In this document: in pieces, positions 6,360 through 53,516 of the stretch
Position numbering within the stretch: position 1 is the first letter of the stretch
How the letters are laid out: the number at the start of each line of letters is the position of its first letter
Source: an uncultured bacterium
GTDB taxonomy: Bacteria > Acidobacteriota > Thermoanaerobaculia > Multivoradales > JAHZIX01
Direction: 5' to 3'
Assembly (NCBI GenBank): GCA_965368975.1
Contig: CBDUPA010000007.1
Location: forward strand, 128,001 to 192,000
Length of the DNA: 64,000 nt
Notes under the pieces: generated by a model
What the model saw: the letters and a program-made list of their open reading frames with translations, nothing else
What the model was told of the DNA's origin: nothing
Database searches by the model: none
Position numbers and translations under genes: made by a program

Positions 6360-6370
6360 AGGTACAAGCC

Positions 6371-7378: not shown

Positions 7379-7456
7379 TCCAGCTCCTGCTCTGTTGTCG
7401 GAGCAGTGAGAGCCTGGGGATGCTAGTCAGAGTCGTGCCAAGTAGAGCGGTGCCAG

Positions 7457-8746: not shown

Positions 8747-8859
8747 TCTCTTCGAGATCTATTATGCACCAAGAGGCTTCGGCAAGCACTCTTGATCTTG
8801 AGGTGCCGTCGACATTCTTGTTTCGTTTGCTGAAAGGAGGGCAGCCGATCCGGCGCGGC

Positions 8860-10167: not shown

Positions 10168-10185
10168 CCCAATGGGTCCAACTCA

Positions 10186-10211
10186 ACGGCTTGGTAACAC
10201 GGCTTGGTAAC
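10186..10211. repeat. 13-bp perfect tandem direct repeat
   Basis: ACGGCTTGGTAAC twice, just upstream of the kinase start. Confidence 0.8.
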
Positions 10212-10332
10212 TGAGAGATCTTGAGTCGTTACATTGAGTGTAACAACATTGATCCTCTCTGTCCGCATTCCGTCGGACGGTCTAGAAGGATGAGAGTCCT
10301 GCAGCTGTGTCTAGCGTGGTGAGGAAGCAGGG

Positions 10333-10360
10333 CTGCCGGCGGGGAGATCGATGCCGGCAG
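10333..10360 (-). terminator. Hairpin downstream of tRNA-Lys
   Basis: CTGCCGGC...GCCGGCAG inverted repeat about 10 nt past the tRNA CCA. Confidence 0.55.
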
Positions 10361-10370
10361 GGAGGTGGGT

Positions 10371-10446
10371 TGGTGGGCCGTGAGGGGCTCGAACCCCCGA
10401 CCTACTGGTTAAAAGCCAGCAGCTCTACCAACTGAGCTAACGGCCC
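10371..10446 (-). tRNA. tRNA-Lys(UUU)
   Basis: Reverse complement GGGCCGTTAGCTCAGTTGGTAGAGC-TGCTGG-CT-TTT-AA-CCAGT-AGGTCGGGGGTTCGAGCCCCTCACGGCCCACCA: 76 nt, D and T loops, encoded CCA. Confidence 0.97.
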
Positions 10447-10604
10447 ACCGCAGTGTAACGCATCGGCCCCATCGGATTCCAGGGGGACAACGCCTCGATC
10501 TCGTCGCTGCTGTGTAGATGTCTGCTGGGACTCCAGAGTTTGGTAGCTCTGCTAGACTTTGGGGCCTCGATCACAGACGCACTCAACCATGAGGAGTTCC
10601 ACCG

Positions 10605-11612: not shown

Positions 11613-12511
11613 ACTTCGTCATCGCAGCGGTCGTCACGTTCTTCGCCAGTTTCATCCTGGTGCCGCTCTTCTTGCTCCTGGTGCGCATGTTCGGCGTCTA
11701 CGCCATCGTGCAGGAGCGCAGGTGTCTCGTCTACGTGCTGTTCGGCAAAGTCGTGCTGGTGCTCAACGAGCCCGGTCTGCACCTGCTGTGGCTCAAGATG
11801 GGCCCCAAGGCCTTGTTCGTGCGCTGGTTCGGTCAGTGCTACACGCTCGACATGCGGCTCGACCAGGTGTACTTGCGCAGCCAGCCGGTCAATTCCGAAG
11901 AAGGCGCGCCGATGGGCATCGGCATGTGGTACGAGATGTACATCAGCGATCCGGTGGCCTTCCTGTTCAAGAACACCGACCCGCGCGGCTCGCTGGCCGC
12001 CAACGTCAGCAACGCGACAGTGCGCTGCTTGAGCAACATGGAACTCGACACCATGCTCACCAGTCGTCACGGTATGAGCCGGTCGGTGCGCCAGGAGGTG
12101 TCGCCGATGTCGCACGAGTGGGGGTACAAGCTCGGCTCGGTGTACATCCGCAAGGTGCATTTCCGTGATCGCGACATGATCCGGCAGATCGAGGAGAAGG
12201 TGGTCAACCGCTTGCGCCAGGTGACCTCGGCGATCTTGCAGGACGGCGAGAACCAGGTCAACGTGATCACCAGTACCGCCGAGCGCAAGGCGGCGATCGA
12301 GTTCGCCAAAGCGGCGGCGTTGCGGCCCAAGATCGTCGGCGCGGCGTTGCAGAAGATTGCGCAGGATCCGGAGGTGGAGGCGGCGATGTTCGAGGTTCTG
12401 GAGCTGCAACGACTGGTCGAGGGCGAGAAGTCGCTGACGCTGGTGCCACGGGGGGCCGGTGACGGGGGCAGTGGTGTGTTGACCGAACTGTTAGCGGCGA
12501 AGGAGGGGTGA
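11609..12511 (+). CDS. SPFH/Band 7 domain membrane protein (second subunit)
   Basis: ATGA overlap; TM then LFGKVV..EPGLH, WGYKLGSVYIRKV; HflK/HflC-like pairing. Confidence 0.8.
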   Translation: MNFVIAAVVTFFASFILVPLFLLLVRMFGVYAIVQERRCLVYVLFGKVVLVLNEPGLHLLWLKMGPKALFVRWFGQCYTLDMRLDQVYLRSQPVNSEEGAPMGIGMWYEMYISDPVAFLFKNTDPRGSLAANVSNATVRCLSNMELDTMLTSRHGMSRSVRQEVSPMSHEWGYKLGSVYIRKVHFRDRDMIRQIEEKVVNRLRQVTSAILQDGENQVNVITSTAERKAAIEFAKAAALRPKIVGAALQKIAQDPEVEAAMFEVLELQRLVEGEKSLTLVPRGAGDGGSGVLTELLAAKEG

Positions 12512-13895: not shown

Positions 13896-14933
13896 TCACC
13901 GTGGGGTCTCGGCTGGCGCCGGTGGGGCTCCCTGGTAGCGCTGGCGGAAACGCACGCTGCCGGCACGCCGATGCTCGACCTCGACCAGCAATTCATGCTC
14001 ACGATCCTCCGTTCCCGTGCCGGTGCGACGACTGCCGCTGGTGGGGAAGGCGAGCACGTATTGGTGACGCAACTCGTCGCCGAGCCGGCGGCATACCGCC
14101 GCGACGTCCGCGGGACCGTCGACACGCTGGTAGCGGCCGCCGCTGTCGTAGGCCAGGCGCACCAGCACGTCCTCTGGGGCCGGGCGTTGCCACTGGCCGT
14201 CCGGACCGCGCTCGAGGGGGCCGGAGCCGAGAATGGGCAGGCCGAGATCGATAGGGTAGACGGCGACCTTGGCGTCGCGAACTCGCTGGCGGGCTTCACC
14301 GGCGGTCGAGCGGCTGGCGTTGTCGGCACCGTCGGTGACCAGAATGGCGGCACGGCGGTGATGGCGCATGCCTTCGAGCAGCCACGGGAGACGCCCGACC
14401 GCGTCGTGTAGGGCAGTGACGCCGCGGGCTCGCCACTGCTCGGCGTCAGCTTCGAGCAGCGTCTTGTTGCGAGTGAAGGGCAAGCGCAGCCGTACCTCTT
14501 GGTTGCCGAAGCCGACGACCGAGATCTCGTGTGTCGTGCCCGGTACTAGCAGCGTGTCCCGCAGGCAGGCGAGCAACTCGCGACCGGTCTCCAGTCTCCC
14601 ATCGTTGCTCATGCTGCCACTCAGGTCTTGCAGGAAGAGCAAGGACACGGGTGCTTCGTCGTCACCCTCGAAGCTGGCGATCGGCACGCGCTGGTCGTCG
14701 ACGAAGAGCCGGAAATCGTCAACCGTCAGGTCGGTGAGGTAGCCGCCCTGGCGGTCCTGCACCACCACGGGCACCAGTACCCACGTGACTTGCACGGTGT
14801 CGCCAAACTCTTGGGACTGGTGGCTCGCCTGGTCGGTCGATTGGGCGCTGCGGGTCGGCAAGAGCAGCAGCACGGTCAGCAGCGCTGCCGCGAACTTTAC
14901 TCGGCGCTGCGAAACGGCTAGCCTGCGCACCAT
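13896..14933 (-). CDS. VWA-domain protein (Acidobacterial VWFA-related type)
   Basis: Signal peptide; VPVVVQD...DLTVDDFRL; MIDAS DLSGSM, TALHDA, VTDGAD; LRHQYVLAF. Start uncertain. Confidence 0.82.
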   Translation of the reverse strand: MVRRLAVSQRRVKFAAALLTVLLLLPTRSAQSTDQASHQSQEFGDTVQVTWVLVPVVVQDRQGGYLTDLTVDDFRLFVDDQRVPIASFEGDDEAPVSLLFLQDLSGSMSNDGRLETGRELLACLRDTLLVPGTTHEISVVGFGNQEVRLRLPFTRNKTLLEADAEQWRARGVTALHDAVGRLPWLLEGMRHHRRAAILVTDGADNASRSTAGEARQRVRDAKVAVYPIDLGLPILGSGPLERGPDGQWQRPAPEDVLVRLAYDSGGRYQRVDGPADVAAVCRRLGDELRHQYVLAFPTSGSRRTGTGTEDREHELLVEVEHRRAGSVRFRQRYQGAPPAPAETPR

Positions 14934-15318
14934 GAGCGAGAACGCCCCGACGGATGTCCCTGCCGCGCCGGATACCGCCGCCGAGCAGCTCGAGCCAGCC
15001 AGCGACGACGGAACCCTCTTCGGAATGACCGAAGACCAGGTCGCCGAGAATTTCAGTCCGATCAACATCCGTAACGTCTCCATCAAGTGCGGTCGCTGCC
15101 AAAGCTACCAGACCTTGAGCGCCTTCGAGCGTCGGGGTACCTGGAACGTCTACACCTACGAGTGTGAGGACCAGGTGTGTGAACCGTCGCACAGCCGAAC
15201 GCTGATCGAGGTGCCGGCGGTACTCGACGAGTTCGCCAACCGAGACCCCAACTGGCGCGGTGGCAAGCGGCATGCGGGAGCGGATCCGGCGGGTGGCTCG
15301 GAGGATCACGGAGACTGA
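14932..15318 (+). CDS. Small putative Zn-ribbon protein
   Basis: CGRC...YECEDQVC (four Cys); coding-like codon usage; upstream of the GAPDH-like gene. Confidence 0.6.
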   Translation: MSENAPTDVPAAPDTAAEQLEPASDDGTLFGMTEDQVAENFSPINIRNVSIKCGRCQSYQTLSAFERRGTWNVYTYECEDQVCEPSHSRTLIEVPAVLDEFANRDPNWRGGKRHAGADPAGGSEDHGD

Positions 15319-18345: not shown

Positions 18346-19491
18346 ATGTTGGAGAAACTGAACCCGGGGGCGCGGGGCGCCCAACAATCGATGATCCGGC
18401 GTCTGACCGCCGAGGTCGTCAAGAGTGGTGGCGTCGACCTGAGTCAGGGCCTTTGTACCTTCCTGCCCGACCAGCGCATTCTCGACGGCGCTGTCCGTGC
18501 CGTGCTGGCGGGCAAGAACACCTATAGCCCCAACGTCGGCACGCAGGACCTGCGGCAGCAGTTGGCGGACAAGTACCGTCGGCGCAACGGCCTCGACGTC
18601 ACGATCGACAACGTCATGGTGACCTCCGGTGCCACCGGAGCGTTCGAGAGCATCTGCAAGGCTTTCCTGGAACCCGGCGACGAAGTCGTGATGGTGCAGC
18701 CGTTCTACGGGTACCACATTCGTCAGGTCCAGGATCGCGGAGCCATTCCCCGCTTCGTCTCGCTGCATCCTCCGGATTGGCACTTCGACCGCGACGAGTT
18801 CGAGAACGCACTGACCGACAAGACCAAGTTCGTCGTCTTCTCCAACCCGAGCAACCCGACAGGCAAGGTGTTCACGCGCGACGAACTCGAGTTCATCGGC
18901 CAAGCTTGTCGCAGCCGGGATATTCTGACAGTGGTCGACGAGGTCTACGAGTACATCCTCGCCAACGACAAGGAGCACGTCTCGATGGCGTCGCTGCCGG
19001 GCATGTTCGAGTCGACGCTGACCATGTCGTCCGCGAGCAAGACGCTGTGCGTGACCGGCTGGCGTATCGGTTGGCTGGTAGCTCCCGCCGAGGTGATCCC
19101 GGCTCTCGGGGTCAAGTTCGACGACGCCTTCATGTGCGCGCCGCGCCCTTTCCAGCACGCGGTCGCCGACGTCTTCGCCCTGGGTGATGACATCTTCGAG
19201 CAGATTCGCCAGACTTTCTGCAGCAAGCGCGACACGATGGCTGCCGCACTGCGTGGTTTTGGCCTCGACGTCTACGGCGGCGAAGGCGCCTGTTACCTGA
19301 TCGCTGGCTACGAGAAGCTGGGCTTCAAGGACGATATGGCGGCCATCTGGAGTCTGCTGGAAAACCAGAACGTCGCCGGCTTGCCGGGCAGTTCCTTCTA
19401 TCCTGGCGAGAGAAACTCCGGCTTCGTGCGCTTCTGCTTCGCGGTCAGTGACGAAGACCTCGGACGCGTGACGGAGGCTCTGGCTCGCTAG
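18346..19491 (+). CDS. PLP-dependent aminotransferase class I/II
   Basis: DLSQG, VTSGATGA, NPSNPTG, DEVYE, SASKTLCVTGWRIG, RFCFA. Confidence 0.93.
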   Translation: MLEKLNPGARGAQQSMIRRLTAEVVKSGGVDLSQGLCTFLPDQRILDGAVRAVLAGKNTYSPNVGTQDLRQQLADKYRRRNGLDVTIDNVMVTSGATGAFESICKAFLEPGDEVVMVQPFYGYHIRQVQDRGAIPRFVSLHPPDWHFDRDEFENALTDKTKFVVFSNPSNPTGKVFTRDELEFIGQACRSRDILTVVDEVYEYILANDKEHVSMASLPGMFESTLTMSSASKTLCVTGWRIGWLVAPAEVIPALGVKFDDAFMCAPRPFQHAVADVFALGDDIFEQIRQTFCSKRDTMAAALRGFGLDVYGGEGACYLIAGYEKLGFKDDMAAIWSLLENQNVAGLPGSSFYPGERNSGFVRFCFAVSDEDLGRVTEALAR

Positions 19492-40119: not shown

Positions 40120-41058
40120 TTACAAGCTAGGCTTGTAGATCGAAACTGCGGTCTGCATGCGCGTACCCTGGCCCGCCGTGAAGTTGTCCATGCAGGCGTC
40201 GTCCGAGTAGCTCATGAAGTTGTCCACCGGATCGAGACCCGGCTGGCTCGGGCAGGAGTCGAGGCCAACGGGGCAGCCGTAGCCCGGGCTGGAGTGGTAC
40301 GGCGTGTCGTCGACGTAGTCACCCGGCGGCGTGCAGCCACCCTGGAAGGTGTGGTAGAGGCCGAGGTAGTGGCCGACTTCGTGGGTGCCGGTGTCGCCGA
40401 GGTTGTACGGAGCGGCGGAACCGCCCGGCAGCGAGGAATACAGCATCACGACACCGTGGCGATAGTCGCTCTCCGCGAACGACCAGGGAAAGTAGGCCCA
40501 GCCAAGGATGCCGCCCGCCGGGTTGCAGGTGTAGATGTTGAGATGCGTCGCCGGATCGACGGCTAGCGCTGCCTTGATGCGGTTCTCGATGTTGGTGCTG
40601 TAGCAGTTGTTGAACGCGCGGTTGCTGCGCGTGCGGTCTACGCTGGCCAGCGTGAAGGAAAAGCCGTGGCTGGCGTAGGCGTTGTTGAGCACGGTGATCT
40701 GATCGTTGATCTGGGACAGCGGCACGTTGCCGACGCCCGAGTTGTTGTAGATCACGTGGAAGGCGACCGGGATGTTGATCGTGGCCTTCTCCGGAGCGCC
40801 ATGCTCGGCGAGGTAGTTGCGGACGAACGAGTCCACGGCTTCGGCGGTGCGACGGTCAACCTTGGGCGCGCCGCAACGGGTGCCAAGGACTAGTTCACCG
40901 TGGGAGGTCAAGTAGTGAATGTCCTGGCTGACCTCGGGCGCTCTGCGGGTCTCGCGGCTGGCGTCGAACGGCTCGTCGAAGATATCGACTTCAGCCAGGG
41001 CGCTCAGGCCGCTGCAGGCGAGCAAGGCGAGACATAGAAACAAGACAGACTTCTTCAT
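40120..41058 (-). CDS. M43 (pappalysin/ulilysin-like) zinc metalloprotease, copy 1
   Basis: Signal peptide; prodomain Cys switch GTRCG; HEVGHYLGLYH; NFMSY Met-turn. Confidence 0.93.
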   Translation of the reverse strand: MKKSVLFLCLALLACSGLSALAEVDIFDEPFDASRETRRAPEVSQDIHYLTSHGELVLGTRCGAPKVDRRTAEAVDSFVRNYLAEHGAPEKATINIPVAFHVIYNNSGVGNVPLSQINDQITVLNNAYASHGFSFTLASVDRTRSNRAFNNCYSTNIENRIKAALAVDPATHLNIYTCNPAGGILGWAYFPWSFAESDYRHGVVMLYSSLPGGSAAPYNLGDTGTHEVGHYLGLYHTFQGGCTPPGDYVDDTPYHSSPGYGCPVGLDSCPSQPGLDPVDNFMSYSDDACMDNFTAGQGTRMQTAVSIYKPSL

Positions 41059-41242
41059 TGGGTTCTCCTCTCCCTGCAGGCAACGCACTCGAAGCCGGAA
41101 GTTTCCGGCCTTGGGCGGCGTCAGCCTGCGGGCATGATCGGACGGGACGGGACCCAGAAATGGATACGCAATGTAAAGATTTGCAGAGTGTAAAGGGCGG
41201 CTACTGCGTTGTCAAAGAAGTGCGCTTCGCGATGGGCAAAGA

Positions 41243-41274
41243 GAAAGCCGGCTTCCGTGAGGAAACCGGCTTTC
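41243..41274 (-). terminator. Intrinsic terminator after M43 copy 2
   Basis: GAAAGCCGG...CCGGCTTTC. Confidence 0.7.
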
Positions 41275-41334
41275 GATCCGTTCATGGACGGATGCGGCCC
41301 CGCCCCTTCGGACGGGCCCTGTGCAGACGAGGAC

Positions 41335-42294
41335 TTACAGACTGGGCTTGTAGGTGGCGAGTGCGTTCAGCGCGCGCGTCACCTGACCCGGCGTGAACTC
41401 GTACATGCAGGGGTTGTCGGTGTAGTCCATGTAGTTGTGGATCGGGTCGACACCGGTGCTGGAGCAGGTGTCACGGCCGACGGGGCAACCGCTGCCCGGG
41501 GAGGCCTCGAACGGGGTGTCGGCGACGGAGTCGCCGGGTGCCGAGCAGCCACCCTGGAAGGTGTGGTAGAGGCCAACCCAGTGACCGACCTCGTGGACCA
41601 TGATGTCACCCAGGTTGTAGGGAGCGGCGGAGCCTCCCGGCAGCGTGGCGTAGCTGATCAGCACGCCGTGACGGTAGCTGTCTTCCGGGTAGGACCACGG
41701 GAAGGTGGCCCGGCCCAGCAGGCCGCCCGAGGGACCGCAGGAGTAGACGTTCAGGTGGGTGGCCGGGGAAACGGCCAGGGAGGCGCGCATCTGCTGCTCG
41801 TTGCGTGAGTTGTCACAGCGGTCGAACCAGCTGCGGTTCTCGGTACGGTCAATGCTGTCGAGCGTGAAGCTGACGCCCATGCCAGCGTAGGCCGCGTTCA
41901 TCACTGCGACCTGATCGATGACCTGCTGATCGGTGACGTTACCCACCGTGTTGCCGCGCTGCTTCTTGGTGATCACGTGCCAGGCGACCTGGACGTTGAT
42001 GGCGGCCTTGTCCGTGGCGCCGTTCTCGGCGACGTGGTTGCGGATCAGGGTGTCGACGGCTTCCTGGGTACGCGCGTCCGGGGCGGCGACGCCACACAGC
42101 TGGCCACGACGAATCTCGCCGTTCTCGTTCAGGAAGTGGATGTCCGGCTGGACGCCACCACGGTCGGTCCGTCCCTCGACGGAAGCGAGGCTGTTGGGAT
42201 GCGAGTCTTCCGGGGCGGCGATGGCGTCCGCCAGGACGCCGGTGGCGCCGCAGAACAGGAAGGTGGCGGCGAGAATCGAGGCAGCTTTCTTCAC
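41335..42294 (-). CDS. M43 zinc metalloprotease, copy 2
   Basis: GTG start with AGGAGA RBS; HEVGHWVGLYH; NYMDY. Confidence 0.93.
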   Translation of the reverse strand: MKKAASILAATFLFCGATGVLADAIAAPEDSHPNSLASVEGRTDRGGVQPDIHFLNENGEIRRGQLCGVAAPDARTQEAVDTLIRNHVAENGATDKAAINVQVAWHVITKKQRGNTVGNVTDQQVIDQVAVMNAAYAGMGVSFTLDSIDRTENRSWFDRCDNSRNEQQMRASLAVSPATHLNVYSCGPSGGLLGRATFPWSYPEDSYRHGVLISYATLPGGSAAPYNLGDIMVHEVGHWVGLYHTFQGGCSAPGDSVADTPFEASPGSGCPVGRDTCSSTGVDPIHNYMDYTDNPCMYEFTPGQVTRALNALATYKPSL

Positions 42295-42417
42295 GAGGTT
42301 TCTCCTGGTTTCCGGCCGCACTCGATTGTTCTCGGGCGGCTTCGGAGAGAGTTGGGGGGGTGCTGTTTCAGATCGGATTCAAGTGACGGTCATCGGGACC
42401 GGGGAAGTCGGGGCCTG

Positions 42418-42446
42418 AAAAAGCCGGCTCCGAGGTGGAGCCGGCT
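42418..42446 (-). terminator. Intrinsic terminator after M43 copy 3
   Basis: AGCCGGCTCC-GAGGT-GGAGCCGGCT followed by a U-tract on the minus strand. Confidence 0.75.
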
Positions 42447-42499
42447 GGTCCCGTCCGAACCCCTGCTATGCAGGAGTTGTGGTCGGAGTCTCTGCCGTC

Positions 42500-43414
42500 T
42501 TACAGGCTGGGACGATAGGTGGCGCACATGGTCTGCATGCGCGAAGCCTGGTCGGACGTGAAGGTGTTCATGCAGCTATCGTCGGTGTAGTCCATGAAGT
42601 TGTAGATGGGATCCAGGCCGGCGCTCGAGCAGCTGTCACGGCCGACGGGGCAGCCGTAAGCCGGCGAAGCCTCGTACGGGGTGTCAGCGACGGAGTCGCC
42701 AGGCGCCGAGCAACCACCCTGGAAGGTGTGGTAGAGGCCGAGGTAGTGGCCGACTTCATGGGTCGCGGTGTCACCCAGGTTGTAGGGAGCAGCCGAGCCG
42801 CCGGGCAGCGAGGAGTGCAGCAGGACGACGCCATGGCGGTAGTCGCTCTCGGCGAAGGACCACGGGAAGTAGGCCCAGCCCAGGATGCCGTTGCTCGGGT
42901 TGCAGCTGTAGATGTTCAGGTGAGTCGAGGGATCGACGGCCAGGGCGGACTTCATCTGGTTCTCGGTGTTGCCGTTGTAGCAGCGGTCGAACCACTTGCG
43001 GCTGTTCGTGCGCGTGGTGGTCGCCAGGTTGAACGAGAAGCCGGTGCCGGCGTAGGCGGCGTTGAGCACGGACATCTGGTTGGCGATCTGCGTGTCGGAC
43101 ACGTTGCCGATGGTGTTGCCGCGCTGGGTCTTGTAGACCACGTGCCAGGCAACCTGGATGGTGCCGGCGGCCTTCTCGGGGGCGCCGTTCTCGGCGATGT
43201 AGCTCTGCACGTAGGACTCGATGGCCGCGGCGGTGCGGGCGTCGACAGCCGGGGCGCCACAGCGGGTGCCGCGGACCAGGTCGCCATCCTGGTTCAGGAA
43301 GTGGACGTCGTGGGTGACCTCGGGGGCATCAGCGCGGCTGATGCGCTCCGCGGTGACGCTCATGGCGCCACAAAGCAGGAACAGGGCACAAAGGATCGAG
43401 ACAGACTTACGCAT
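42500..43414 (-). CDS. M43 zinc metalloprotease, copy 3
   Basis: HEVGHYLGLYH; NFMDY; RGTRCG. Confidence 0.93.
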   Translation of the reverse strand: MRKSVSILCALFLLCGAMSVTAERISRADAPEVTHDVHFLNQDGDLVRGTRCGAPAVDARTAAAIESYVQSYIAENGAPEKAAGTIQVAWHVVYKTQRGNTIGNVSDTQIANQMSVLNAAYAGTGFSFNLATTTRTNSRKWFDRCYNGNTENQMKSALAVDPSTHLNIYSCNPSNGILGWAYFPWSFAESDYRHGVVLLHSSLPGGSAAPYNLGDTATHEVGHYLGLYHTFQGGCSAPGDSVADTPYEASPAYGCPVGRDSCSSAGLDPIYNFMDYTDDSCMNTFTSDQASRMQTMCATYRPSL

Positions 43415-43711
43415 GGGTAGGGATCTCCTGCTGTCGATCCGAATACAAGTTGCTCATGACACATTCTCGAAATCCCTGCTCACGCAGGAAACGCAGGAAT
43501 GCTGTATGACCGAACTCGATCGGCTCAACAGAAATAATGGGGTTTTACGGACAAGGACCCGAACAAGGGATGTAATCTGAAGCGTTGTGAGTGTATGGAT
43601 GCCAGTAAGGCATGTCAAGAGTTTTTTGCGGACCCCGGCGGATTACAAGTATGGAAATGTTGCTATGTCCTCCGCGGCAGTTGCTCCCGTCAAAAAGAGA
43701 GGGTAAGAGAA

Positions 43712-43741
43712 AGAGCCGACCTCCGGAAGAAGGTCGGCTCT
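43712..43741 (-). terminator. Intrinsic terminator after M43 copy 4
   Basis: AGAGCCGACCT...AGGTCGGCTCT. Confidence 0.7.
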
Positions 43742-43832
43742 AAGACCGCTCGATGCGGTACGTCGCAGCTGCAAAGTTCCCGGCCAGGTGCATGAGCCCT
43801 GACGGTCAGCTTCCAGGCTGGGACGAATCAGC

Positions 43833-44744
43833 TTACAGGCTGGGACGATAGGTAGCGCACATGGTCTGCATGCGCGTCGCCTGGTCGGCCGTGAAGGTGT
43901 TCATGCAGGAGTCGTCGGTGTAGTCCATGAAGTTGTAGATCGGGTCTGGGCCACCGCCGGCGCAGGTGTCACGGCCGACCGGGCAACCGTAGGCCGGGGA
44001 AGCCTCGGCCGGGGTGTCGGCGACGAAGTCACCGTTGCCGCTGCAGCCGCCCTGGAAGGTGTGGTAGAGACCCAGGTAGTGACCAACCTCGTGGGTGCCG
44101 GTGTCGCCGAGGTTGTACGGTGCGGCGGAGCCGCCGGGCAGCGAGGAGTAGAGCAGGACGACGCCGTGGCGGTAGTCGCTCTCGGCGAAGGACCAGGGGA
44201 AGTAGGCCCAACCCAGGATGCCGCCGCTCGGGTTGCAGCTGTAGATATTCAGAGTGGTCGCCGGGTTGACGTTGAGCGAGGATTTCATCTGGTTCTCGAC
44301 GTTGGTGGTGTAGCAGCGGTCGAACCAGCGGCGGTTGTTGGTGCGCGTGGTGGTCACCAGGTTGAACGAGAAGCCGGTGCCGGCGTAGGCGGCGTTGAGC
44401 ACGGCGATCTGGTTGTCGATCTGCGACTGCGGCACGTTACCGGTGGTGGTACCGCGACGAGTCTTGTAGATCACGTGGAAGGCGACATTGATGGAGCCAG
44501 CTGCCTTCTCGGGAGCACCGTTCTCGGCGATGTAGCGCTGCACGTAGGCATCAACGGCCTCGGCGGTACGCGGATCGACGGCCGGGGCGCCACAGCGGGT
44601 ACCACGGATCAGGTCGCCATGGTCGTCCAGGTAGTGGACATCGAAGGCGACGTCAGGGGCATCGCGGCTGACGCGCTCAGCGGCAACGCTCATGGCGCCG
44701 CAGAGCAGGAAGAGGGCACAGAGAATCGAGACAGACTTACGCAT
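43833..44744 (-). CDS. M43 zinc metalloprotease, copy 4
   Basis: Signal peptide essentially identical to copy 3 (MRKSVSILCALFLLCGAMSV); HEVGHYLGLYH. Confidence 0.93.
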   Translation of the reverse strand: MRKSVSILCALFLLCGAMSVAAERVSRDAPDVAFDVHYLDDHGDLIRGTRCGAPAVDPRTAEAVDAYVQRYIAENGAPEKAAGSINVAFHVIYKTRRGTTTGNVPQSQIDNQIAVLNAAYAGTGFSFNLVTTTRTNNRRWFDRCYTTNVENQMKSSLNVNPATTLNIYSCNPSGGILGWAYFPWSFAESDYRHGVVLLYSSLPGGSAAPYNLGDTGTHEVGHYLGLYHTFQGGCSGNGDFVADTPAEASPAYGCPVGRDTCAGGGPDPIYNFMDYTDDSCMNTFTADQATRMQTMCATYRPSL

Positions 44745-45208
44745 GGATAGCGTCTCCTTGCATGTTCTGTACGAAGCGGGAGGTTCAACTCTGCTCGGAT
44801 ACACAAAGCCCCTCTACCAGGGAATCGTGATCAGAATGTGGGCAAAGTGAAGTCCGCCCCAGTACGGGGGATTATAGGACCCGGGAAAGTATGCTCAAAT
44901 GCGGCCATCAGTATAGGCGGTGGTTTTCAGGCTGTCAACCTTCCGGGGCGGGATCTTCTCGGGCCTTCGCAGTTCCCCGAGAGCCCGGGCTCACCTCCCG
45001 ACACAAGGGTGGGGGCAAGAATCTATCCCTGTGGGGTGTTCCTGACGGCGGTGACATGGATAGAATGGCTCTAGAACCACCCGCGCTGCCTGGCCGTGTT
45101 CGCTTCTCCGCGCGGATTTGCCAGACTGCGGGTGGCGACTCGCAGCGCGACCCTCGCATGGATGACATTCCCCCCGACACCGCAAGACCCGCAAACCCCA
45201 AGGATTGA

Positions 45209-46651
<1,443 letters not shown>

Positions 46652-46692
46652 ACTCTCGGAACTCGGTGCCTCGAAGCGAGGCGAGGAGGTTG

Positions 46693-49600
46693 ATGGAGTC
46701 TCACGAGCAGGAGAAGCGACCGTCGGACCAAGGGCAAGAGCAGCACGGCCAGGACGAGGCCGCGCTGCAGGTCGGCTTGGAGGATAACGCTCGGGTCGAG
46801 CGGCCTTTCCGATACCAGAACCTGATGAAGCATTTGGTGCGGGATATCCTGATGGTGGCCAGCGCCTACGACTGTTTCATCCTGGAGGAGGACGGCCGTT
46901 TCGCCGACCGCCTGCTCAACCAGTACGTGGAACTCGATCTCTCTTCGCCTCCGCACTTCCGTCACGTCGCGTCGGCACGCGAGGCCCTGGAGCTGGTGCG
47001 CAGTGAGCGCTTCGACCTGGTCCTGACGACGCCGCACTGCGCCGACATGCGCGCCGAGCGGCTGGCCGCGCAGCTGGCGGCTGAGCATTCCCATCTGCCG
47101 GTGGCGATGCTCACTTACGATCAGAGCGACGCCCTGCGCTACAGCCAAATGCCGCGCTCGGCCGGCATCGACGAGACCTTCCTGTGGACCGGCGACCCCA
47201 AGCTGTTGGTGGCCCTGGTCAAGTCGATCGAAGACCACCGCAATGTCGACCGCGACACCCGCGAGGGCATGGTGCGGGTGATCTTGTTGGTCGAGGACTC
47301 GCCGTCCTTCTACTCGTCCTATCTGCCGATCATCTACGGTGAGGTCGTCGCGCAGTTCCAGTCCTTGCTCGCCGAGCGGCTCAACGAGCGCGACCGCCGT
47401 CATCGCATGCGCGCGCGCCCGAAGATCTTGCTGGCGCGCAACTGGGAAGAGGCGGTGGATCTTTTTCATCGCTACAACGAGTTCTTGCTCGGCACGATCT
47501 GCGACATGCGGTTCCCGCGCGGTGGTCGTCTGGACCCCGACGCCGGTCGTGACTTCATCCGCTTGGTCCGCGAGAAACAGGCCGATGCGCCGGTGCTGCT
47601 GCAGTCCGGCGAGGCGGGGCACGCCAAGGTGGCGCGGGAGCTGAAGGTGCACTTCGCGGACAAGAACTCAAAGGAGTTGCTGGCCAGCCTCGGCGAGTTC
47701 ATCCGCAACAATTTCGGCTTCGGCCCCTTCCGGTTTCAACTGCCCGGCGGCAAGAAGATCGCCGTGGCGGCGGACATGGAATCGATGGTCGAGGCGCTGC
47801 GCACGGTTCCCGACGCCTCTTTGCTGTTCCACGGCCGTGGCAACCACATCTCGAACTGGCTGATGGCGCGCAGTGAATTCGGACTGGCGCAGGAAGTTCG
47901 TCCCAAGAAGGTGGGAGACTTCCCGACCACCGCCGACATGCGGACCTACCTGGTGAACAGCTTCAGTCACCACCTGGAGACACGCCAGCGCGGCGAGATC
48001 GCCGAGTTCGCGCGACATTCAGTGTCGATCACGCGTGAGTTCAGTCGCTTGGGCAGCGGGTCGATGGGCGGCAAGGGTCGTGGTATCGCTTTTCTCAGCC
48101 ATCTGCTGGTGGAGCGCGGCGTGCAGAGTCGCTATCCGGAAGTGCGCGTGCGCGTGCCGCGCACGGTGGTGATCGGTACCGACCTCTTCGATCGCTTCTG
48201 CGAGCACAAGAACCTACGCCAGCGGGCGCTCGAAGCCGAGAACGATCAGCAGGTCGTGCAACTGTTTCTGCAGCAGCCGTTGCCCAAGGAACTGGATGAA
48301 GATCTCGACGTGATCCTGGGGCAGATGGACGTGCCGATCGCGGTGCGTTCGTCGAGTCTGCACGAGGACTCCGAGTCCCTGCCGCTCGCCGGCCTTTTCA
48401 AGAGCTACATGCTGCCCAACTGCTCGCACTCGGACCGCGTGCGCAAGAGGCAGCTGAGTCGCGCCATCCGGCTGATCTATGCCACGCCCTTCTTGCACCC
48501 GGTGCGCTCCTACCTCGAGGCCAGTGCTCTGCGCGTGGAGGAAGAAAAGATGGCGGTGATCATCCAGGCCCTCGTCGGCCGCCGCCACGGCGACTACTTC
48601 TATCCCGATTTCGCCGGTGTCGCCCAGTCGTACAACTACTATCCGCTGCGTTTCATACAGCCCGACGATGGCATTGCCACCGTGGCTCTCGGCCTTGGGC
48701 AGACCATCGTCCGTGGGCGCAAGGCGCTGCGTTTCAGTCCGCGCTATCCGCGCATCCTGCCGCAGATGTCGACTCCCCAAGACGCTCTGCGCGCGTCGCA
48801 GCGCCAGTTCTTTGCCCTCGACCTGTCGGACAGCGAACTGGAGCCGCAGGTCGATGAGGACGCGCACTTGGTCACCTTCGGGCTCGAAGTTGCCGAGGAG
48901 CACGGAACACTCGAGGCGCTGGGCGCTACCTACTCGCCGGACAATGACGCCATCTACGACACCATCTACCGCGACGGGGCTCGCCTGGTGAACTTCGCTG
49001 GTGTCCTCAAGCACGGTCGCTTTCCGCTGGCACCTCTGCTCACCGACCTGCTGGCGATGGGACAGGAAGGCATGGGGATGCCAATCGAGATGGAGTTTGC
49101 GGTCACCCTGCCCGCGGACAAGAACGCCGAGACCAGCTCTCCGCCCGAGATCGCGCTGCTGCAGCTGCGGCCGCTGGTGACGCAGAGCGGCGACCGCCAG
49201 GTCGACATCGACGAGTTGCCCGAGGATCGCGTGCCGCTGATCGTCGGAACGGCGTTGGGCAACGGCGTCATCCGAGGGATTCGTGACGTTGTCTACGTCA
49301 ATCCTGACCTGCGCTTCGAGGCCGACCACAACCGCCGCTTGGCGCGCCAGATCGAGGTGCTCAACCATCGCTTGTCGCAGGCGTCGCGTCCCTACATCCT
49401 GATCGGCCCCGGCCGCTGGGGTACCGCTGACCCGTGGCTCGGCATCCCAGTGACCTGGGCCCAGGTCTCGGCCGCGCGCGTGATCGTCGAATTGGAACTG
49501 CCCGGGTCGCACATCGACGCCTCGCAGGGCACCCACTTCTTCCACAATCTGACGTCGCTACGCATTGGTTACTTCGGTGTCGATCTCGGCAACTCCGTGC

Positions 49601-49758
49601 ACTACATTGACCTGGACTGGTTGCACAGCCTCAAGAGTGACGCCGGAGCCGGCTTTCTGCACTACGTGGAACTGCCAGAGGAAGTCGAGGTGCACATCGA
49701 CGGCCGCACCGGACGTGGCGTCGTGGTGCGCGTTCCCGCCGCCGAAACCCTCACATGA
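46693..49758 (+). CDS. REC-like domains + PEP synthase/PPDK ATP-binding domain protein
   Basis: N-terminal receiver-like segments (ILLVEDSP); GGKGRG, IAVRSSSLHED, EEKMAVIIQ, ALGLG, IEMEFA; C-terminal SQGTHFFHNL. Confidence 0.82.
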   Translation: MESHEQEKRPSDQGQEQHGQDEAALQVGLEDNARVERPFRYQNLMKHLVRDILMVASAYDCFILEEDGRFADRLLNQYVELDLSSPPHFRHVASAREALELVRSERFDLVLTTPHCADMRAERLAAQLAAEHSHLPVAMLTYDQSDALRYSQMPRSAGIDETFLWTGDPKLLVALVKSIEDHRNVDRDTREGMVRVILLVEDSPSFYSSYLPIIYGEVVAQFQSLLAERLNERDRRHRMRARPKILLARNWEEAVDLFHRYNEFLLGTICDMRFPRGGRLDPDAGRDFIRLVREKQADAPVLLQSGEAGHAKVARELKVHFADKNSKELLASLGEFIRNNFGFGPFRFQLPGGKKIAVAADMESMVEALRTVPDASLLFHGRGNHISNWLMARSEFGLAQEVRPKKVGDFPTTADMRTYLVNSFSHHLETRQRGEIAEFARHSVSITREFSRLGSGSMGGKGRGIAFLSHLLVERGVQSRYPEVRVRVPRTVVIGTDLFDRFCEHKNLRQRALEAENDQQVVQLFLQQPLPKELDEDLDVILGQMDVPIAVRSSSLHEDSESLPLAGLFKSYMLPNCSHSDRVRKRQLSRAIRLIYATPFLHPVRSYLEASALRVEEEKMAVIIQALVGRRHGDYFYPDFAGVAQSYNYYPLRFIQPDDGIATVALGLGQTIVRGRKALRFSPRYPRILPQMSTPQDALRASQRQFFALDLSDSELEPQVDEDAHLVTFGLEVAEEHGTLEALGATYSPDNDAIYDTIYRDGARLVNFAGVLKHGRFPLAPLLTDLLAMGQEGMGMPIEMEFAVTLPADKNAETSSPPEIALLQLRPLVTQSGDRQVDIDELPEDRVPLIVGTALGNGVIRGIRDVVYVNPDLRFEADHNRRLARQIEVLNHRLSQASRPYILIGPGRWGTADPWLGIPVTWAQVSAARVIVELELPGSHIDASQGTHFFHNLTSLRIGYFGVDLGNSVHYIDLDWLHSLKSDAGAGFLHYVELPEEVEVHIDGRTGRGVVVRVPAAETLT

Positions 49759-51956
49759 GCGACGCTCTTTCTGTTGCGGGGCGCGTCCTCGTCCTCGGTT
49801 CCGGCTCGGCAGCGCGAGCGATCCAGCGACTGCTCGCCGACGCCAGTTTCGCGCACGTGCAGGCACAACCGGAGTTGGCACCGGCCTCCCTAGCCGATGC
49901 CGATCTCGTCATCTGCGTTTTTGGTGTCGACACCCCTGCGGCGATCGCACACGGTGTCGAGCAAGCCTGCCTGGACGCCGGTACTCCCTGCCTCTTCGTC
50001 GGTCCCCTGGGGGATGAGCTCGCGGTCGGCCCGCTGGTCCGGCGTGCGGTGGCGCGGCGCGGCGGAGGTTGTTCGTCCTGCCTGGAGCGTCCGCCCTGGC
50101 CCGACTTGTTGCACGCCGCGAAGATGTCTGCGTATACGGAGCAACTCGCAGCAGCCGTAGCGCTACGCGAGGCTCACCGGCTGTTGGTTCTGGGGGCGCA
50201 AGGTGAATTGGTCGCCAAGCGTACTCTGCTCGATGCGCAAGGGCGCTCCCGTCTCGAACGCTTGGCCCACCGCCCCGGCTGTGCACGCTGCGGCACGCCC
50301 GCGACCGTCGAACTGCACCGTCTCGCCGACCTGCATCGCGCCGCCGAGCGCTTCGTACAGCCTACGCGGCGCCGCGTCACGGATCCCGCTTCCGGAAGGT
50401 CCACTGGAGAACCAAGGGTGCGCCGCGTAGGCATCCTGGGTGGTGGTAGCGCCGGCTACCTTGCCGCGTTGGTCTTGCGCCGCAAGCTGCCGAGCGTCGA
50501 GGTGACGGTAATCGCGTCCTCGGACATCCCCGTCATCGGCGTCGGCGAAGCCAGCACACCGCTGCTGCCGGCCCTATTGCATGGCACCCTCGGCCTCGAT
50601 CTCCCCGACTTCTTCCGTCGTGCCCAGCCGACGCTCAAGCTGGGTATTCACTTCGACTGGGGATCGCAGGTAGGGGCCGGCTTTCACTATCCCTTCGACC
50701 GCGGTCCGCTACTCGAATCCCTGCACTACGAAGGCCACATCAACGCGTACTGTCCGTCGTCCCTGCTCATGACCGCTGGCCGTGCTCCCTTGCTGCGCCT
50801 GGGCGATGGCTCCTTGCGCTGGCTCGGTGCGCCGTTCGCCTACCACGTCGACAATCGCCGCTTCGTCCACTACCTCCAAGAGGAGGCCGAGCGCGCCGGT
50901 GTCACGACGCTGGACCGGCTCGTCGAGCGCGCCGACGTCGGGGAACTGGCGGAGGGTGAGAAGGTCGTCGAGGCGTTGTACACCGACCGTGGCGAGTGTC
51001 TCGAAGCCGACCTATGGATCGACGCGTCCGGCTTCCGCTCGTTCCTGCTCGGCGATGTCCTCGAGGTTCCCTTCGTCGATTTCGCCCCCAGCCTGTTCAC
51101 CAACGCTGCTCTCGCTGCTCCGCTGCCGCGGCCGAGGGAGGCCGAGTTACCGCCGTACACCACGGCGGCCACCTGGGACCACGGCTGGAGCTGGCGCATC
51201 CCGCAGCTGGAAGAAGACCACGTCGGCTATGTCTTCTCGACCGCTCACGCCTCTGCCGAACAGGCCGAGCGCGAGTTCCGCCAGGCCTACCCCGGCGTTG
51301 CGGATCCCCGGCTCTTGCATTTCCGGCCCGGCCGGCGTGCCAACGCGTGGGTGGGCAATGTCGTCGGACTCGGCAACGCCTACGGCTTCGTCGAACCGCT
51401 GGAGTCGACCTCGCTGCACATGATCGCCTTGACCACCGTCTTGCTCGTCCAGCACTTTCCGCAAGGCTCGACGCAGTGCCGCGACGAGCCGACATCGCGC
51501 CGCAGCTTCAATCGCTACATCGGTGATTTCTGGGACGAACTCCGCTGGTTCCTGGCGCTGCACTTCAAGTTCAACCAGCGTCGCGACACTGGGTTCTGGC
51601 GCGCTTGCCGTGCCGAGGTCGACGTCAGTGGTGCTCAGGCGACCCTCGACCTGTTCCGCGAACGTGCACCACTCTCCTACCGCCCACACCTCGAAGACTT
51701 CGATCCTCTGTGGGGTGACTTCGGGCGTGACGTGATCCTGATGGGCCAGGACGTCAAGGGTGGATGGGGGGCACCAAGGCTGAGTCCGGAGCAGTGGGCG
51801 CGGACGATGGAACACGGCCGCGCGCTCGTCGAGGCGGCGCTGCCGCATGGGGAAGTCCTGCGACTACTGCAAGAGCAGCCGGAGGTCGGCTGGCAGCTGC
51901 AGGCCGGTGCATCGTGGCTGAGTGATGCGGCGGTCGGCGGACGGCGGGGTTGGTAG
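49755..51956 (+). CDS. E1/ThiF-like (TOMM scaffold) domain fused to flavin-dependent tryptophan halogenase
   Basis: N-terminal ACLDAGTPCL...VGPLV...CSSC...RPGCARC. Halogenase GGGSAG, IGVGEAS, PTLKLGI (catalytic Lys), WSWRIP, GFVEPLEST. Confidence 0.85.
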   Translation: MSDALSVAGRVLVLGSGSAARAIQRLLADASFAHVQAQPELAPASLADADLVICVFGVDTPAAIAHGVEQACLDAGTPCLFVGPLGDELAVGPLVRRAVARRGGGCSSCLERPPWPDLLHAAKMSAYTEQLAAAVALREAHRLLVLGAQGELVAKRTLLDAQGRSRLERLAHRPGCARCGTPATVELHRLADLHRAAERFVQPTRRRVTDPASGRSTGEPRVRRVGILGGGSAGYLAALVLRRKLPSVEVTVIASSDIPVIGVGEASTPLLPALLHGTLGLDLPDFFRRAQPTLKLGIHFDWGSQVGAGFHYPFDRGPLLESLHYEGHINAYCPSSLLMTAGRAPLLRLGDGSLRWLGAPFAYHVDNRRFVHYLQEEAERAGVTTLDRLVERADVGELAEGEKVVEALYTDRGECLEADLWIDASGFRSFLLGDVLEVPFVDFAPSLFTNAALAAPLPRPREAELPPYTTAATWDHGWSWRIPQLEEDHVGYVFSTAHASAEQAEREFRQAYPGVADPRLLHFRPGRRANAWVGNVVGLGNAYGFVEPLESTSLHMIALTTVLLVQHFPQGSTQCRDEPTSRRSFNRYIGDFWDELRWFLALHFKFNQRRDTGFWRACRAEVDVSGAQATLDLFRERAPLSYRPHLEDFDPLWGDFGRDVILMGQDVKGGWGAPRLSPEQWARTMEHGRALVEAALPHGEVLRLLQEQPEVGWQLQAGASWLSDAAVGGRRGW

Positions 51957-52343: not shown

Positions 52344-53516
52344 ATGAGGATGCGAGCTTCTTATCTGGCGCTAGCGGTAGTGCTCGTCGGCGTACTGTGT
52401 CTGGCGCCGATTGTTACTGCAGAGACGCAACCGACTCGTTTCCGGGTCACGAACCAGTGTACGTACGACATCTGGATCCAGCAGGACTCGACGCATCACA
52501 CGAGTGATCCGGTCGTGGTCAAGCTGGCCAAGGGCGGTTCGCCCTACGATTACGACATCCCTGCCGCAGGGCTCGCCTCGACGCGTTTCTGGGCCAAGGC
52601 GGGGTGTGACAGCACGGGCTGGAATTGCGGTGTCGGTCAGAGTGAGAGTGGCGGTGGAACCACGCAGACCATCTTCGATTCGCCGATCGATAGCAAGTTC
52701 GAAGCGACCTGGGGCTGCCTCACCTCGCCCTGTGCCACCAACCCGTCCGATGGCAAGCCGCTCGGCGCGTCGACCTATTGGGACGCCTCGGCGGTCGACG
52801 GCTTCACCTTTGCCTTCCAGGTGCTTGTCAAGAACGATCCGAGCAAGAGTTGCCTGACGCAGAGTGCGCATCCGAAGCTGGTCACCGAGATCAACTGTCA
52901 GGGTCTCGATCCCACCAAGGGCTGCCCGCATGCGAATCTGTCCAGTGCTGGCAACTTCAACCCGATCAACGGTGTCGACGTGACCGACGTGGATCTGGAG
53001 TACTACGGCTACACGGATTTCTCCAAGGTTGTCGGCTGCTTCAGCCCCTGTGAGATCTTGACCAGTGGTCAGTGGCTCGGCTGGAAAGACAAGCTCGGTG
53101 GCCTGACCCCATACTCCGACCAAGCGCAGATGTATTGTTGTCCGACCTCGGCCGGAGAGTCGTGGTCGGTGTCCGAGCAGCAGTGCAACGTCAGCGGCAA
53201 GACCATCGACGGCAAGCAGGTACCGGCGGTAGCGCCGACCATGAGCTACACCACGTCCATTCACGAGGTGTGTGGTGTGTATGCCTACGCGTATGACGAC
53301 GGCGTCGGCCTGGTGAAGTGCGACGGACCGGTGCAGTACGAGATGATCTTCTGCCCGGGTGGCAACTCGCTGCCGCAGGTGCCGCCGCGTGTGCCGGAGG
53401 TCTTCTGCGATTCCACCAACAGTCAGTCGAAGTGCCCCGGCAACGTCGATTGCCCGGCCACTGCGGCCGCCTGCGGAACCAACCCGACGATGTGCAAGTG
53501 TCCAACATCGACCTGA
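52344..53516 (+). CDS. Secreted thaumatin-like (PR-5) protein with Cys-rich C-terminal extension
   Basis: Signal peptide; VTNQCTYDIW, RFWAKAGC, KFEATW, YWDASAVDGF, GCFSPC, YCC, YAYAYDD, IFCP. Confidence 0.85.
   Translation: MRMRASYLALAVVLVGVLCLAPIVTAETQPTRFRVTNQCTYDIWIQQDSTHHTSDPVVVKLAKGGSPYDYDIPAAGLASTRFWAKAGCDSTGWNCGVGQSESGGGTTQTIFDSPIDSKFEATWGCLTSPCATNPSDGKPLGASTYWDASAVDGFTFAFQVLVKNDPSKSCLTQSAHPKLVTEINCQGLDPTKGCPHANLSSAGNFNPINGVDVTDVDLEYYGYTDFSKVVGCFSPCEILTSGQWLGWKDKLGGLTPYSDQAQMYCCPTSAGESWSVSEQQCNVSGKTIDGKQVPAVAPTMSYTTSIHEVCGVYAYAYDDGVGLVKCDGPVQYEMIFCPGGNSLPQVPPRVPEVFCDSTNSQSKCPGNVDCPATAAACGTNPTMCKCPTST

Follow-up and report, generated by a model that had tools for sequence, protein, structure and literature searches.

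Flavin-dependent tryptophan halogenases of the PrnA/RebH type use reduced flavin adenine dinucleotide (FADH2) from a reductase, together with O2 and a halide, to form hypohalous acid, which is steered onto the indole by a lysine and a glutamate. A GxGxxG FAD motif, a WxWxIP motif, and the catalytic Lys and Glu are the hallmark features known from PrnA and RebH, in which the role of the catalytic Lys is established. Halogenases that act on tryptophan inside peptides are sought as biocatalysts for late-stage peptide functionalization. The available text of one study gives only four of them (i.e., MibH, SrpI, MppI, and ChlH; PMC12424672), and none of the four is described with an embedded recognition domain in the accessible portions of the reports (PMC12615548, PMC10858898, PMC12424672). 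The window analyzed here (i.e., a 64,000-nucleotide stretch of contig CBDUPA010000007.1 from an uncultured bacterium of the Acidobacteriota) encodes a 733-amino-acid (aa) protein in which a halogenase of the MibH clade is joined to an E1-like domain. The best explanation, which we hold to be somewhat probable, is an orphan peptide halogenase that acts without canonical leader recognition.

MibH works without the leader peptide, according to the available text (PMC12615548). SrpI brominates the C-terminal Trp that follows the Cys-rich core LCCCW of SrpE (PMC10858898, PMC12615548), and the accessible account states that it has no embedded recognition element of ribosomally synthesized and posttranslationally modified peptides (RiPP recognition element [RRE]) and needs none (PMC10858898). 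The available text on MppI mentions no fused domain (PMC11791876), and ChlH, the chlorolassin enzyme, is presented as a MibH-like peptide Trp chlorinase with 58% identity to MibH and a separate flavin reductase (10.1101/2025.01.12.632611). An earlier note on this DNA had called peptide Trp halogenases stand-alone enzymes, and the portions seen of two reports likewise describe them without an embedded RRE (PMC10858898, PMC12424672).

Reading frame and halogenase domain

The fusion gene (P0001) occupies positions 49755..51956 of the + strand, stop codon included. The list of open reading frames (ORFs) and the translation bear out the single uninterrupted frame of the earlier note, which opens with ATG and runs for 733 codons, and every motif quoted there is present (i.e., ACLDAGTPCL, AVGPLV, GCSSCL, HRPGCARCG, GGGSAG, TLKLGI, WSWRIP, and EPLEST). 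Third codon positions are the richest in G+C (GC3, 0.78), as expected for a real gene in a sequence of 65% G+C. The gene is present as a single copy in the 7.1-Mb, 99%-complete genome.

On the basis of profile, alignment, and motif evidence, the C-terminal part (residues 222 to 733; 50418..51953, +) can be assigned to the MibH clade of flavin-dependent halogenases; it is intact and predicted to be active, in agreement with the earlier assignment of a Trp halogenase. The Pfam family PF04820 (Trp_halogenase) matched residues 224 to 643 (E = 8.4e-104; 348.4 bits against a cutoff of 21; profile positions 1 to 420 of 458). The best solved relative was 5uao, which aligned from residue 199 to residue 724 with chain residues 6 to 532 (E = 8.1e-111) and which is MibH, the lanthipeptide Trp chlorinase, according to the available text of a preprint (bioRxiv 10.1101/2025.01.12.632611). 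The next best solved structure was RebH (E = 6.3e-60, in two stretches), and the free-Trp halogenase structures gave E values of 6e-60 or weaker, several of them matching in two stretches only. The protein is thus closer to MibH than to the free-Trp halogenases along the whole catalytic length.

The catalytic motifs were traced in two family alignments of 24 (A1) and 13 (A3) sequences. Within the FAD-binding GGGSAG (residues 229 to 234; 50439..50456, +), all 24 sequences of A1 share G229, G230, G231, A233, and G234. The predicted catalytic lysine, K295 of TLKLGI (50637..50639, +), is invariant in A1 and A3 and pairs with a Lys of 5uao. W478 and W480 of WSWRIP (i.e., WxWxIP; residues 478 to 483; 51186..51203, +) are invariant in both alignments, and F545 to T552 (FVEPLEST) vary little or not at all, a stretch that includes EPLEST (residues 547 to 552; 51393..51410, +) and the predicted catalytic glutamate, E547. 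The GGGSAG motif, W478/W480, and E547 also line up with 5uao. A separate flavin reductase would supply FADH2, with which O2 and Cl- or Br- would give hypohalous acid, and K295 and E547 would direct the halogen onto the tryptophan indole. No flavin reductase gene adjoins the fusion gene; the single PF01613 gene of the genome lies on another contig (C8).

A full-length relative from an independent assembly (P0002; 82% identity) starts like P0001 (MSDA..SVAG). Identity between the two amounts to 66% over residues 1 to 100, 76% over residues 101 to 215, and 89% over residues 216 to 733, and both CxxC pairs of the N-terminal region are kept; the N-terminal body thus seems less constrained than the catalytic domain, yet maintained. 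Since P0002 matches in both start and architecture and the E1-like/halogenase junction recurs at dozens of loci, an assembly artifact is an unlikely source of the fusion.

The start codon overlaps the stop codon of the upstream 1030-aa gene (46666..49758, +) in an ATGA (49755..49758, +), an arrangement that may allow coupled translation with that 1030-codon gene. No Shine-Dalgarno-like purine run was found just upstream of the ATG at 49755, and a scan for promoters and terminators left the + strand blank. The gene might be a decaying relic, stranded after the loss of its cluster and unexpressed or useless, as the missing Shine-Dalgarno-like sequence, the orphan position, the lost RRE, and the lack of a cognate precursor in a 99%-complete genome could suggest. 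However, the frame is open over 733 codons with every catalytic motif intact, the orthologue in an independent assembly is full length with the same start and an 89%-identical catalytic domain, and the ATGA overlap would permit coupled translation. We regard a relic as very improbable.

The E1-like domain and the recognition element

Residues 1 to 182 (49755..50300, +) form an E1-like body of the ThiF/MoeB/MccB/TruD type, Rossmann-like and without an RRE. An alignment of 25 N-terminal regions of the family (A2) served as input for an AlphaFold2 model and for a profile search of sequences in the Protein Data Bank. The model (predicted local distance difference test [pLDDT], 79; predicted template modeling score, 0.73; first beta strand at residues 10 to 15) gave 128 Foldseek matches at an E value of ≤0.001. 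The top matches (MccB [E = 1.2e-9; query TM-score {TMq}, 0.58], LynD, ThiF, TruD, MoeB, MusD, UBA5, and PaaA; E = 1e-9 to 5e-7; TMq, 0.47 to 0.59) were all E1-like enzymes. In the profile search, TruD (1.7e-15), LynD (2.3e-12), MccB (1.4e-8), MusD, PaaA, and MoeB matched; the profile could further be aligned with the E1-like portion of a cyclodehydratase of the thiazole/oxazole-modified microcin (TOMM) type that this genome encodes (hhalign probability, 93.7%; E = 1.9e-7). Structure modeling and profile comparison thus confirm that the N-terminal domain is E1-like, as the earlier note had proposed, and of the TOMM/cyanobactin cyclodehydratase kind.

Searches with single sequences or existing profiles were less sensitive. 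The NCBIfam profile TIGR03882 ("TOMM precursor leader peptide-binding protein," "ocin-ThiF-like") scored 32.4 bits on residues 1 to 222 and 27.2 bits on the full-length protein, below its cutoff of 36.9, and remained below it in six of eight scanned relatives as well (18.3 to 36.7 bits). A phmmer search of residues 1 to 222 against 1.84 billion representative proteins returned only the protein itself and a spurious low-complexity eukaryote-like sequence (P0076), which indicates that the domain is too divergent for a single-sequence search. The first match in the ESM Atlas was named "cyclodehydratase" (0.89, below the level that counts as more than a lead).

Both CxxC pairs are nearly invariant in A1 and A2. 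The first (C106-S-S-C109; 50070..50081, +) pairs with CWHC of TruD, and the second (C176-A-R-C179; 50280..50291, +) pairs with CPTC of TruD and also aligns with CAAC of the genome's own cyclodehydratase. Such pairs bind zinc in E1-like enzymes, and by analogy C106/C109 and C176/C179 would be expected to do so here. A linker (residues 183 to 221; 50301..50417, +) of variable length in A1 follows, with a helix predicted with low confidence at residues 189 to 200 (pLDDT, 45 to 63 beyond residue 180). An active ATP-dependent adenylating domain of the MccB/PaaA kind, which would modify the halogenase's own substrate, might be read from the top rank of MccB in Foldseek and from a GxGxxA-like loop (GSGSAA, residues 15 to 20) after the first beta strand. 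By sequence profile, however, the family is nearest to TruD and LynD, in which the E1-like domain is noncatalytic, and we give adenylation hardly any credence.

A homodimer model of residues 1 to 222 scored 0.57, compared with 0.01 for the best of three controls. Of 30 solved homo-pairs, 20 attain this mark, as against 1 of 23 single chains, but the score may reflect likeness only, since solved E1-like homodimers exist. The three dimer runs share ≥65% of contacts, with a partner pLDDT of ≥73. The orphan enzyme is most likely also dimeric, and the most economical role of the retained E1-like body would be mainly that of a dimerization or structural module.

The long relatives of the fusion protein open with a segment of 90 to 150 residues that is a winged-helix RRE, followed by the Rossmann-like body with its two CxxC pairs (A1 and A3). 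The counterpart of this first segment in TruD and LynD is the RRE (profile positions 10 to 95), which in LynD binds the leader, according to the available account of 4V1T (PMC10858898). Upstream of the ATG of the window gene, just 37 further codons are open (i.e., an open frame of 771 aa versus the ORF of 733 aa plus stop), so that no RRE is concealed by a wrong start. An RRE in the C terminus of the upstream 1030-aa protein was ruled out (hhalign probability, 0.05%), and the three PqqD-type RREs of the genome are all on contigs other than that of the fusion gene. Thus, where the earlier note spoke of scaffold domains that partner YcaO cyclodehydratases, the resemblance to the E1-like scaffold is there, if below the TIGR03882 cutoff, and the RRE is not; the phrase describes ancestry rather than a demonstrated recruiting function.

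We sorted 66 relatives by the number of residues that precede the glycine motif, using thresholds of our own, so that some members of a class may be cut ORFs. This distance was about 300 to 400 residues in 40 relatives, about 90 to 170 in 14, and about 225 to 245 in 3 (P0001, P0002, and P0029), while 9 had no extension. Relatives of 600 to 650 aa keep the RRE and lack the E1-like body; one of them (P0008) gave a weak PqqD match. The MibH-like clade contains members without an extension, with the RRE alone, with the E1-like body alone, and with both, which makes four architectures in all.

A quick maximum-likelihood tree of the catalytic domains was built with a midpoint root after 9 of 75 proteins had been dropped for want of the glycine motif. 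P0001 and P0002 form a pair (Shimodaira-Hasegawa approximate likelihood-ratio test [SH-aLRT], 100) nested in a clade (SH-aLRT, 99) with three RRE-plus-E1-like and nine RRE-only forms, which suggests that peptide binding is ancestral. As judged from these sequence comparisons, the protein is a descendant of a family of RRE, E1-like, and halogenase fusions, and the RRE was lost in the P0001/P0002 lineage. The segment is also missing from a 726-aa form that starts at the Rossmann strand in a gammaproteobacterial metagenome-assembled genome (L040; an unrelated acyl-CoA-dehydrogenase-like gene lies upstream), from a 771-aa form with the same start near a contig edge (L025), and from P0029 (743 aa), which stands on a different branch of the tree. 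RRE-less forms thus seem to have emerged on more than one occasion, with the reservation that P0029 and L025 might represent cut ORFs. The tree requires at least 13 changes of state, and the N-terminal module would accordingly have been gained or lost often. The window gene (body without RRE) and its nearest clade (RRE without body) make up a natural domain-dissection series, in which opposite deletions could reveal what each N-terminal part contributes.

Family contexts, the orphan locus, and its substrate

The protein search yielded 75 relatives, and a collection with one genome per species contained 367 stretches with relatives, of which the best 80 were used for all counts of loci. The fused architecture for which the earlier note had proposed a search was found: the long form (ORFs of ≥760 aa, in general about 800 to 900 aa) is present in 49 of these 80 loci, many of them RiPP clusters with Trp-bearing precursors. 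The hosts belong to many phyla, cyanobacteria among them; Nostoc, Aliinostoc, Altericista, Polyangiaceae/Sorangium, Thermoanaerobaculia and other Acidobacteriota, and Alpha-, Beta-, and Gammaproteobacteria are represented. Neighboring ORFs (≤6 kb from one of the 49 long-form genes) were clustered (BLASTP E ≤ 1e-4; ≥50% coverage), and one representative per cluster was scanned against Pfam. Recurrent neighbors were Lant_dehydr_C (24/49 loci), Lant_dehydr_N (23/49), a second, stand-alone Trp halogenase directly upstream (20/49), TfuA (12/49), an ATP-binding cassette (ABC) exporter (12/49), YcaO (10/49), and two JmjC/cupin clusters (8/49 and 6/49). Three further ORF clusters (C66, C79, and C85) were discarded as antisense high-G+C artifacts.

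Two types of precursor accompany the long forms. The first is a Nif11-like cluster of about 120 aa without a Pfam match, present in 14 of the 49 loci (Nostoc, Aliinostoc, Sorangium/Polyangiaceae, one gammaproteobacterium, and one betaproteobacterium); 14 of its 15 ORFs end in (T/S)(V/I)MC(C/P)W, and double-glycine motifs are present. One more such precursor (120 aa; 18606-18968) lies just beyond the 6-kb limit in L023, a Nostoc locus with its fused halogenase at 9509-12151, and scored 24.2 bits on TIGR03798, below the cutoff of 32.3. The second type, of about 75 aa, is found 3' of the fused halogenase in Thermoanaerobaculia (L048 from 12261, L057 from 12286, and L071 at 14718-14951, +), at ≤160 bp in L048 and L057 and at about 2.4 kb in L071. 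It has a leader of the form MKKKKLTLxxETLAxLE and a core with about 12 Cys and conserved CTDW and PPWC.

An apparently undescribed type of RiPP cluster was seen in L023 (849-20154) and in 14 further loci (e.g., L013, L020, L049, L054, and L070) of Nostoc, Polyangiaceae, and some proteobacteria. It combines the Nif11-like precursor, a split LanB-like dehydratase, several Lant_dehydr_C proteins, YcaO plus TfuA, a JmjC/cupin protein, a stand-alone Trp halogenase, and the fusion of RRE, E1-like body, and halogenase. In all, the family contexts point to at least two apparently undescribed RiPP families.

SrpI brominates just such a residue in SrpE, namely the C-terminal Trp behind a Cys-rich core. 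The long-form family therefore very probably comprises Trp halogenases that act on peptides and have a module for leader recognition built in; their substrates are most likely Trp residues in Nif11-type or Cys/Trp-rich precursors. We found no description of an RRE- or E1-like-fused halogenase in the open literature, supplements being outside the search; a survey of RREs covers 1,158 Pfam domains fused to them, and its supplement may include PF04820, as far as the available text indicates (PMC12710340). The fusion is a widespread, apparently uncharacterized family rather than a singular novelty.

The setting of the window gene is different from that of the long forms. Upstream lie gdhA (NADP-glutamate dehydrogenase; 751 bits, above the equivalog cutoff) and the 1030-aa protein (46666-49758, +), which contains PPDK_N (residues 466 to 848) and a weak receiver-like N terminus and is weakly similar to phosphoenolpyruvate synthase and to the prodigiosin ligases PigC/RedH. 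The PPDK_N gene is single copy in all six genomes of the taxonomic family and adjoins gdhA in all five relatives, none of which has a halogenase within the 1.5-kb flanks of the pair. A role of the two genes as pathway partners, which the ATGA overlap might suggest, was ruled out on these grounds. Conserved synteny was also rejected: the PPDK_N gene occurs in 0 of the 80 loci, and matches to an ABC ATPase and a Ser/Thr kinase are generic. In two of the five relatives, no halogenase was matched at a threshold of E ≤ 1e-20; in the other three, homologues lie on other contigs (a 644-aa, an 872-aa, and one truncated form), and the halogenases within the taxonomic family share no neighbors. The fusion gene is thus shown to be an orphan behind a conserved housekeeping pair.

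Downstream, a gap of 387 bp is followed by genes for a Cys-rich secreted 390-aa protein, a hydrolase, an ABC-2 transporter pair, an amidohydrolase, a Ser/Thr kinase, and a sigma-54 activator, none of which is conserved beside halogenase relatives. The 390-aa protein (52344-53516, +) has a signal-peptide-like N terminus, many Cys, no Pfam or NCBIfam match, and a first-position G+C content of 0.54, lower than that of its neighbors. No precursor, YcaO, or LanB gene was found near the fusion gene, and the flanking gaps hold no precursor-like small ORFs. The absence of an adjacent YcaO or precursor reported in the earlier note therefore stands; the sole YcaO of the genome is on another contig (C27), fused to an E1-like domain of its own.

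Elsewhere in the genome, this C27 cluster (L096 [G000:C27:20000-39999], 6951-11375, -) comprises a 780-aa TruD-like cyclodehydratase (RRE, E1-like, and YcaO; 115 bits on TIGR03882), a 76-aa Nif11-like precursor ending in ..RRRWGKEDEVDPDTCLMCVCV (core, ..DPDTCLMCVCV), and a 566-aa protein. A full-length LanB (L089 [G000:C13:47162-50986]) has two precursor-like ORFs near 1024-1276 (-) with the leader MKKRARKL(R/S)L(L/S)RETLQ.LD ending in GG and Cys-rich cores without Trp; this leader type matches that of the precursors beside the fused halogenases of Thermoanaerobaculia. One Lant_dehydr_C gene lies on contig C12. We discarded 32 ORFs ending in CCW, CPW, or similar, which look like off-frame high-G+C noise.

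Could the enzyme act on a small molecule (i.e., free Trp or an indole metabolite), with peptide binding lost along with the RRE and the E1-like body a leftover? The available text on Amm3, a member of the MibH clade from a RiPP-derived pathway, reports chlorination of a free modified Trp and conversion of free Trp to 6-Cl-Trp, but no acceptance of the peptides tried (PMC12424672), so that the substrate class cannot be read from the clade. The absence of the RRE, the lack of a precursor, YcaO, or LanB nearby, and the housekeeping genes upstream would agree with such a role. On the other side, the SH-aLRT 99 clade is otherwise RRE-bearing (nine RRE-only and three RRE-plus-E1-like forms), the alignment runs end to end with 5uao/MibH and not with free-Trp enzymes, and the adjacent genes include none that would assemble or tailor a halogenated small molecule. 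We judge a small-molecule halogenase rather unlikely.

A peptide substrate is favored because of the end-to-end likeness to MibH, the RRE-bearing ancestry, and the RiPP contexts of the family, and since MibH is leader free, the loss of the RRE is compatible with it. The Trp target would belong to a peptide encoded elsewhere and would be reached without canonical leader recognition, as MibH does. Several points weigh against an orphan peptide halogenase. The orphan position of the gene speaks against a peptide. The RRE, the known leader-binding element, is absent from P0001 and P0002, both of which begin at the Rossmann strand (A1 and A3). Likeness to MibH does not prove a peptide substrate, as the available text on Amm3 suggests. 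No precursor of a family type (i.e., ..MC(C/P)W or a KKLTLxKETL leader plus Trp) was found in the genome, where the best tblastn match (E = 0.03) was a junk frame, and the Trp-free cores beside LanB and the Cys-rich core beside YcaO are poor candidates. At three loci of the nearest, RRE-only clade (L003, L004, and L005), a scan of 10 neighbors turned up no classical RiPP enzyme. Finally, the tree comes from a quick, unfinished search with a midpoint root, and the dimer is a prediction that may reflect only the likeness to solved E1-like homodimers.

Within that nearest clade, L005 contains a 64-aa ORF (5448-5642, +) ending in ..KRKYCAWWV, 2.8 kb upstream of a 555-aa halogenase with a tetratricopeptide repeat protein in between; it may be a minimal precursor.

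The earlier note proposed that the fusion recruits a precursor peptide, named the Trp-containing microviridin cores of the window as candidates without claiming a link, and counted four precursors. We found three, at 4599-5287, in a microviridin-type cluster (4599-7378, +) whose leader motif PFF[AS]RFL occurs nowhere else in the genome. Their cores are ..TLKWPSDDDEGGVEI (4599-4760), ..TTKYPSDNDEWWP (4977-5156), and ..TMKYPSDNDEW (5144-5287), all on the + strand, and two MvdD-type ATP-grasp ligase genes follow (5379-6359 and 6272-7378, +). One of the three terminates in ..DEW and another in ..DEWWP. Recruitment by the E1-like domain itself, through a leader and with the substrate elsewhere (e.g., these precursors), would accord with the complete RRE-plus-E1-like module that the longer relatives carry beside Trp-bearing precursors, with the intact state of the domain at 66 to 76% identity in P0002, and with these endings, which recall the MC(C/P)W of the family and the C-terminal Trp of SrpE. 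However, the leader-binding RRE is missing and is supplied neither by the upstream protein nor by a PqqD-type gene on the contig, and the microviridin-type cluster lies about 45 kb away with many unrelated genes between and nothing that ties it to the halogenase. Recruitment is thus well founded for the family, with its RRE and Trp precursors, but not for this copy, which has neither RRE nor partner, and we consider it improbable here.

A bolder proposal would have the RRE-less, dimeric, leader-independent enzyme chlorinate or brominate the C-terminal Trp of the microviridin-type peptides 45 kb upstream (cores ..KYPSDNDEW and ..DEWWP), and the family would comprise the first halogenases with built-in leader recognition and would define a new family of RiPPs, whose precursors combine Nif11 leaders with an invariant MC(C/P)W at the C terminus. 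We regard this combination as a long shot. If it held, the products would be halogenated microviridin-like protease inhibitors, which to our knowledge have not been reported.

The window also contains four consecutive paralogous genes for M43-type (pappalysin-like) metallopeptidases on the - strand (40120-44804; i.e., 40120-41088, 41335-42321, 42500-43414, and 43833-44804).

Comparison with characterized systems

Taken by itself, this genome offers a modest practical yield. Of greater interest is what was seen beyond the window, a broad, apparently uncharacterized fusion family in which conserved precursors end in Trp and each module is missing from some natural variants. The family offers a ready test of bolting leader recognition onto a halogenase.

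Among characterized enzymes, MibH, the Trp-5 chlorinase of NAI-107 (microbisporicin), shares the FAD, Lys, WxWxIP, and Glu motifs of the fusion protein. The 5uao chain has 541 residues, whereas the fusion adds an N-terminal region of 220 residues; because the alignment starts at chain residue 6, 5uao contains no E1-like domain. The available text places MibH in the lanthipeptide pathway of NAI-107, with a defined substrate (PMC12615548; 10.1101/2025.01.12.632611), while the fusion gene is an orphan. ChlH differs in that its accessible description gives no fused domain and places it in a lasso-peptide cluster with the linear precursor as the substrate (10.1101/2025.01.12.632611). SrpI and MppI, which we set beside the fusion by description only, are leader-dependent Trp brominases that act on precursors of the nitrile hydratase leader peptide (NHLP) or Nif11 type, and the LCCCW core of SrpE parallels the ..MC(C/P)W precursors beside the longer relatives of the fusion. 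For Amm3, the available text gives a released small molecule or free Trp as the substrate.

The N-terminal domain has its counterparts in other enzymes. MccB, PaaA, ThiF, and MoeB have the same fold (Foldseek E = 1e-9 to 5e-7; TMq, 0.53 to 0.59) at an identity of just 14 to 20%, a comparison that holds at the level of the fold. TruD, LynD, and MusD are fused cyclodehydratases of the cyanobactin type that begin with RRE and E1-like domains. The N-terminal module of the family aligns with TruD residues 5 to 324, which span the RRE and the E1-like part with both CxxC pairs (E = 1.7e-15), and the domain of P0001 is modeled with the same fold. In those enzymes the module is fused to YcaO, and in this family it is fused to a halogenase, P0001 being without the RRE. 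The window gene is thus a MibH-type halogenase that carries a cyclodehydratase-type E1-like domain.

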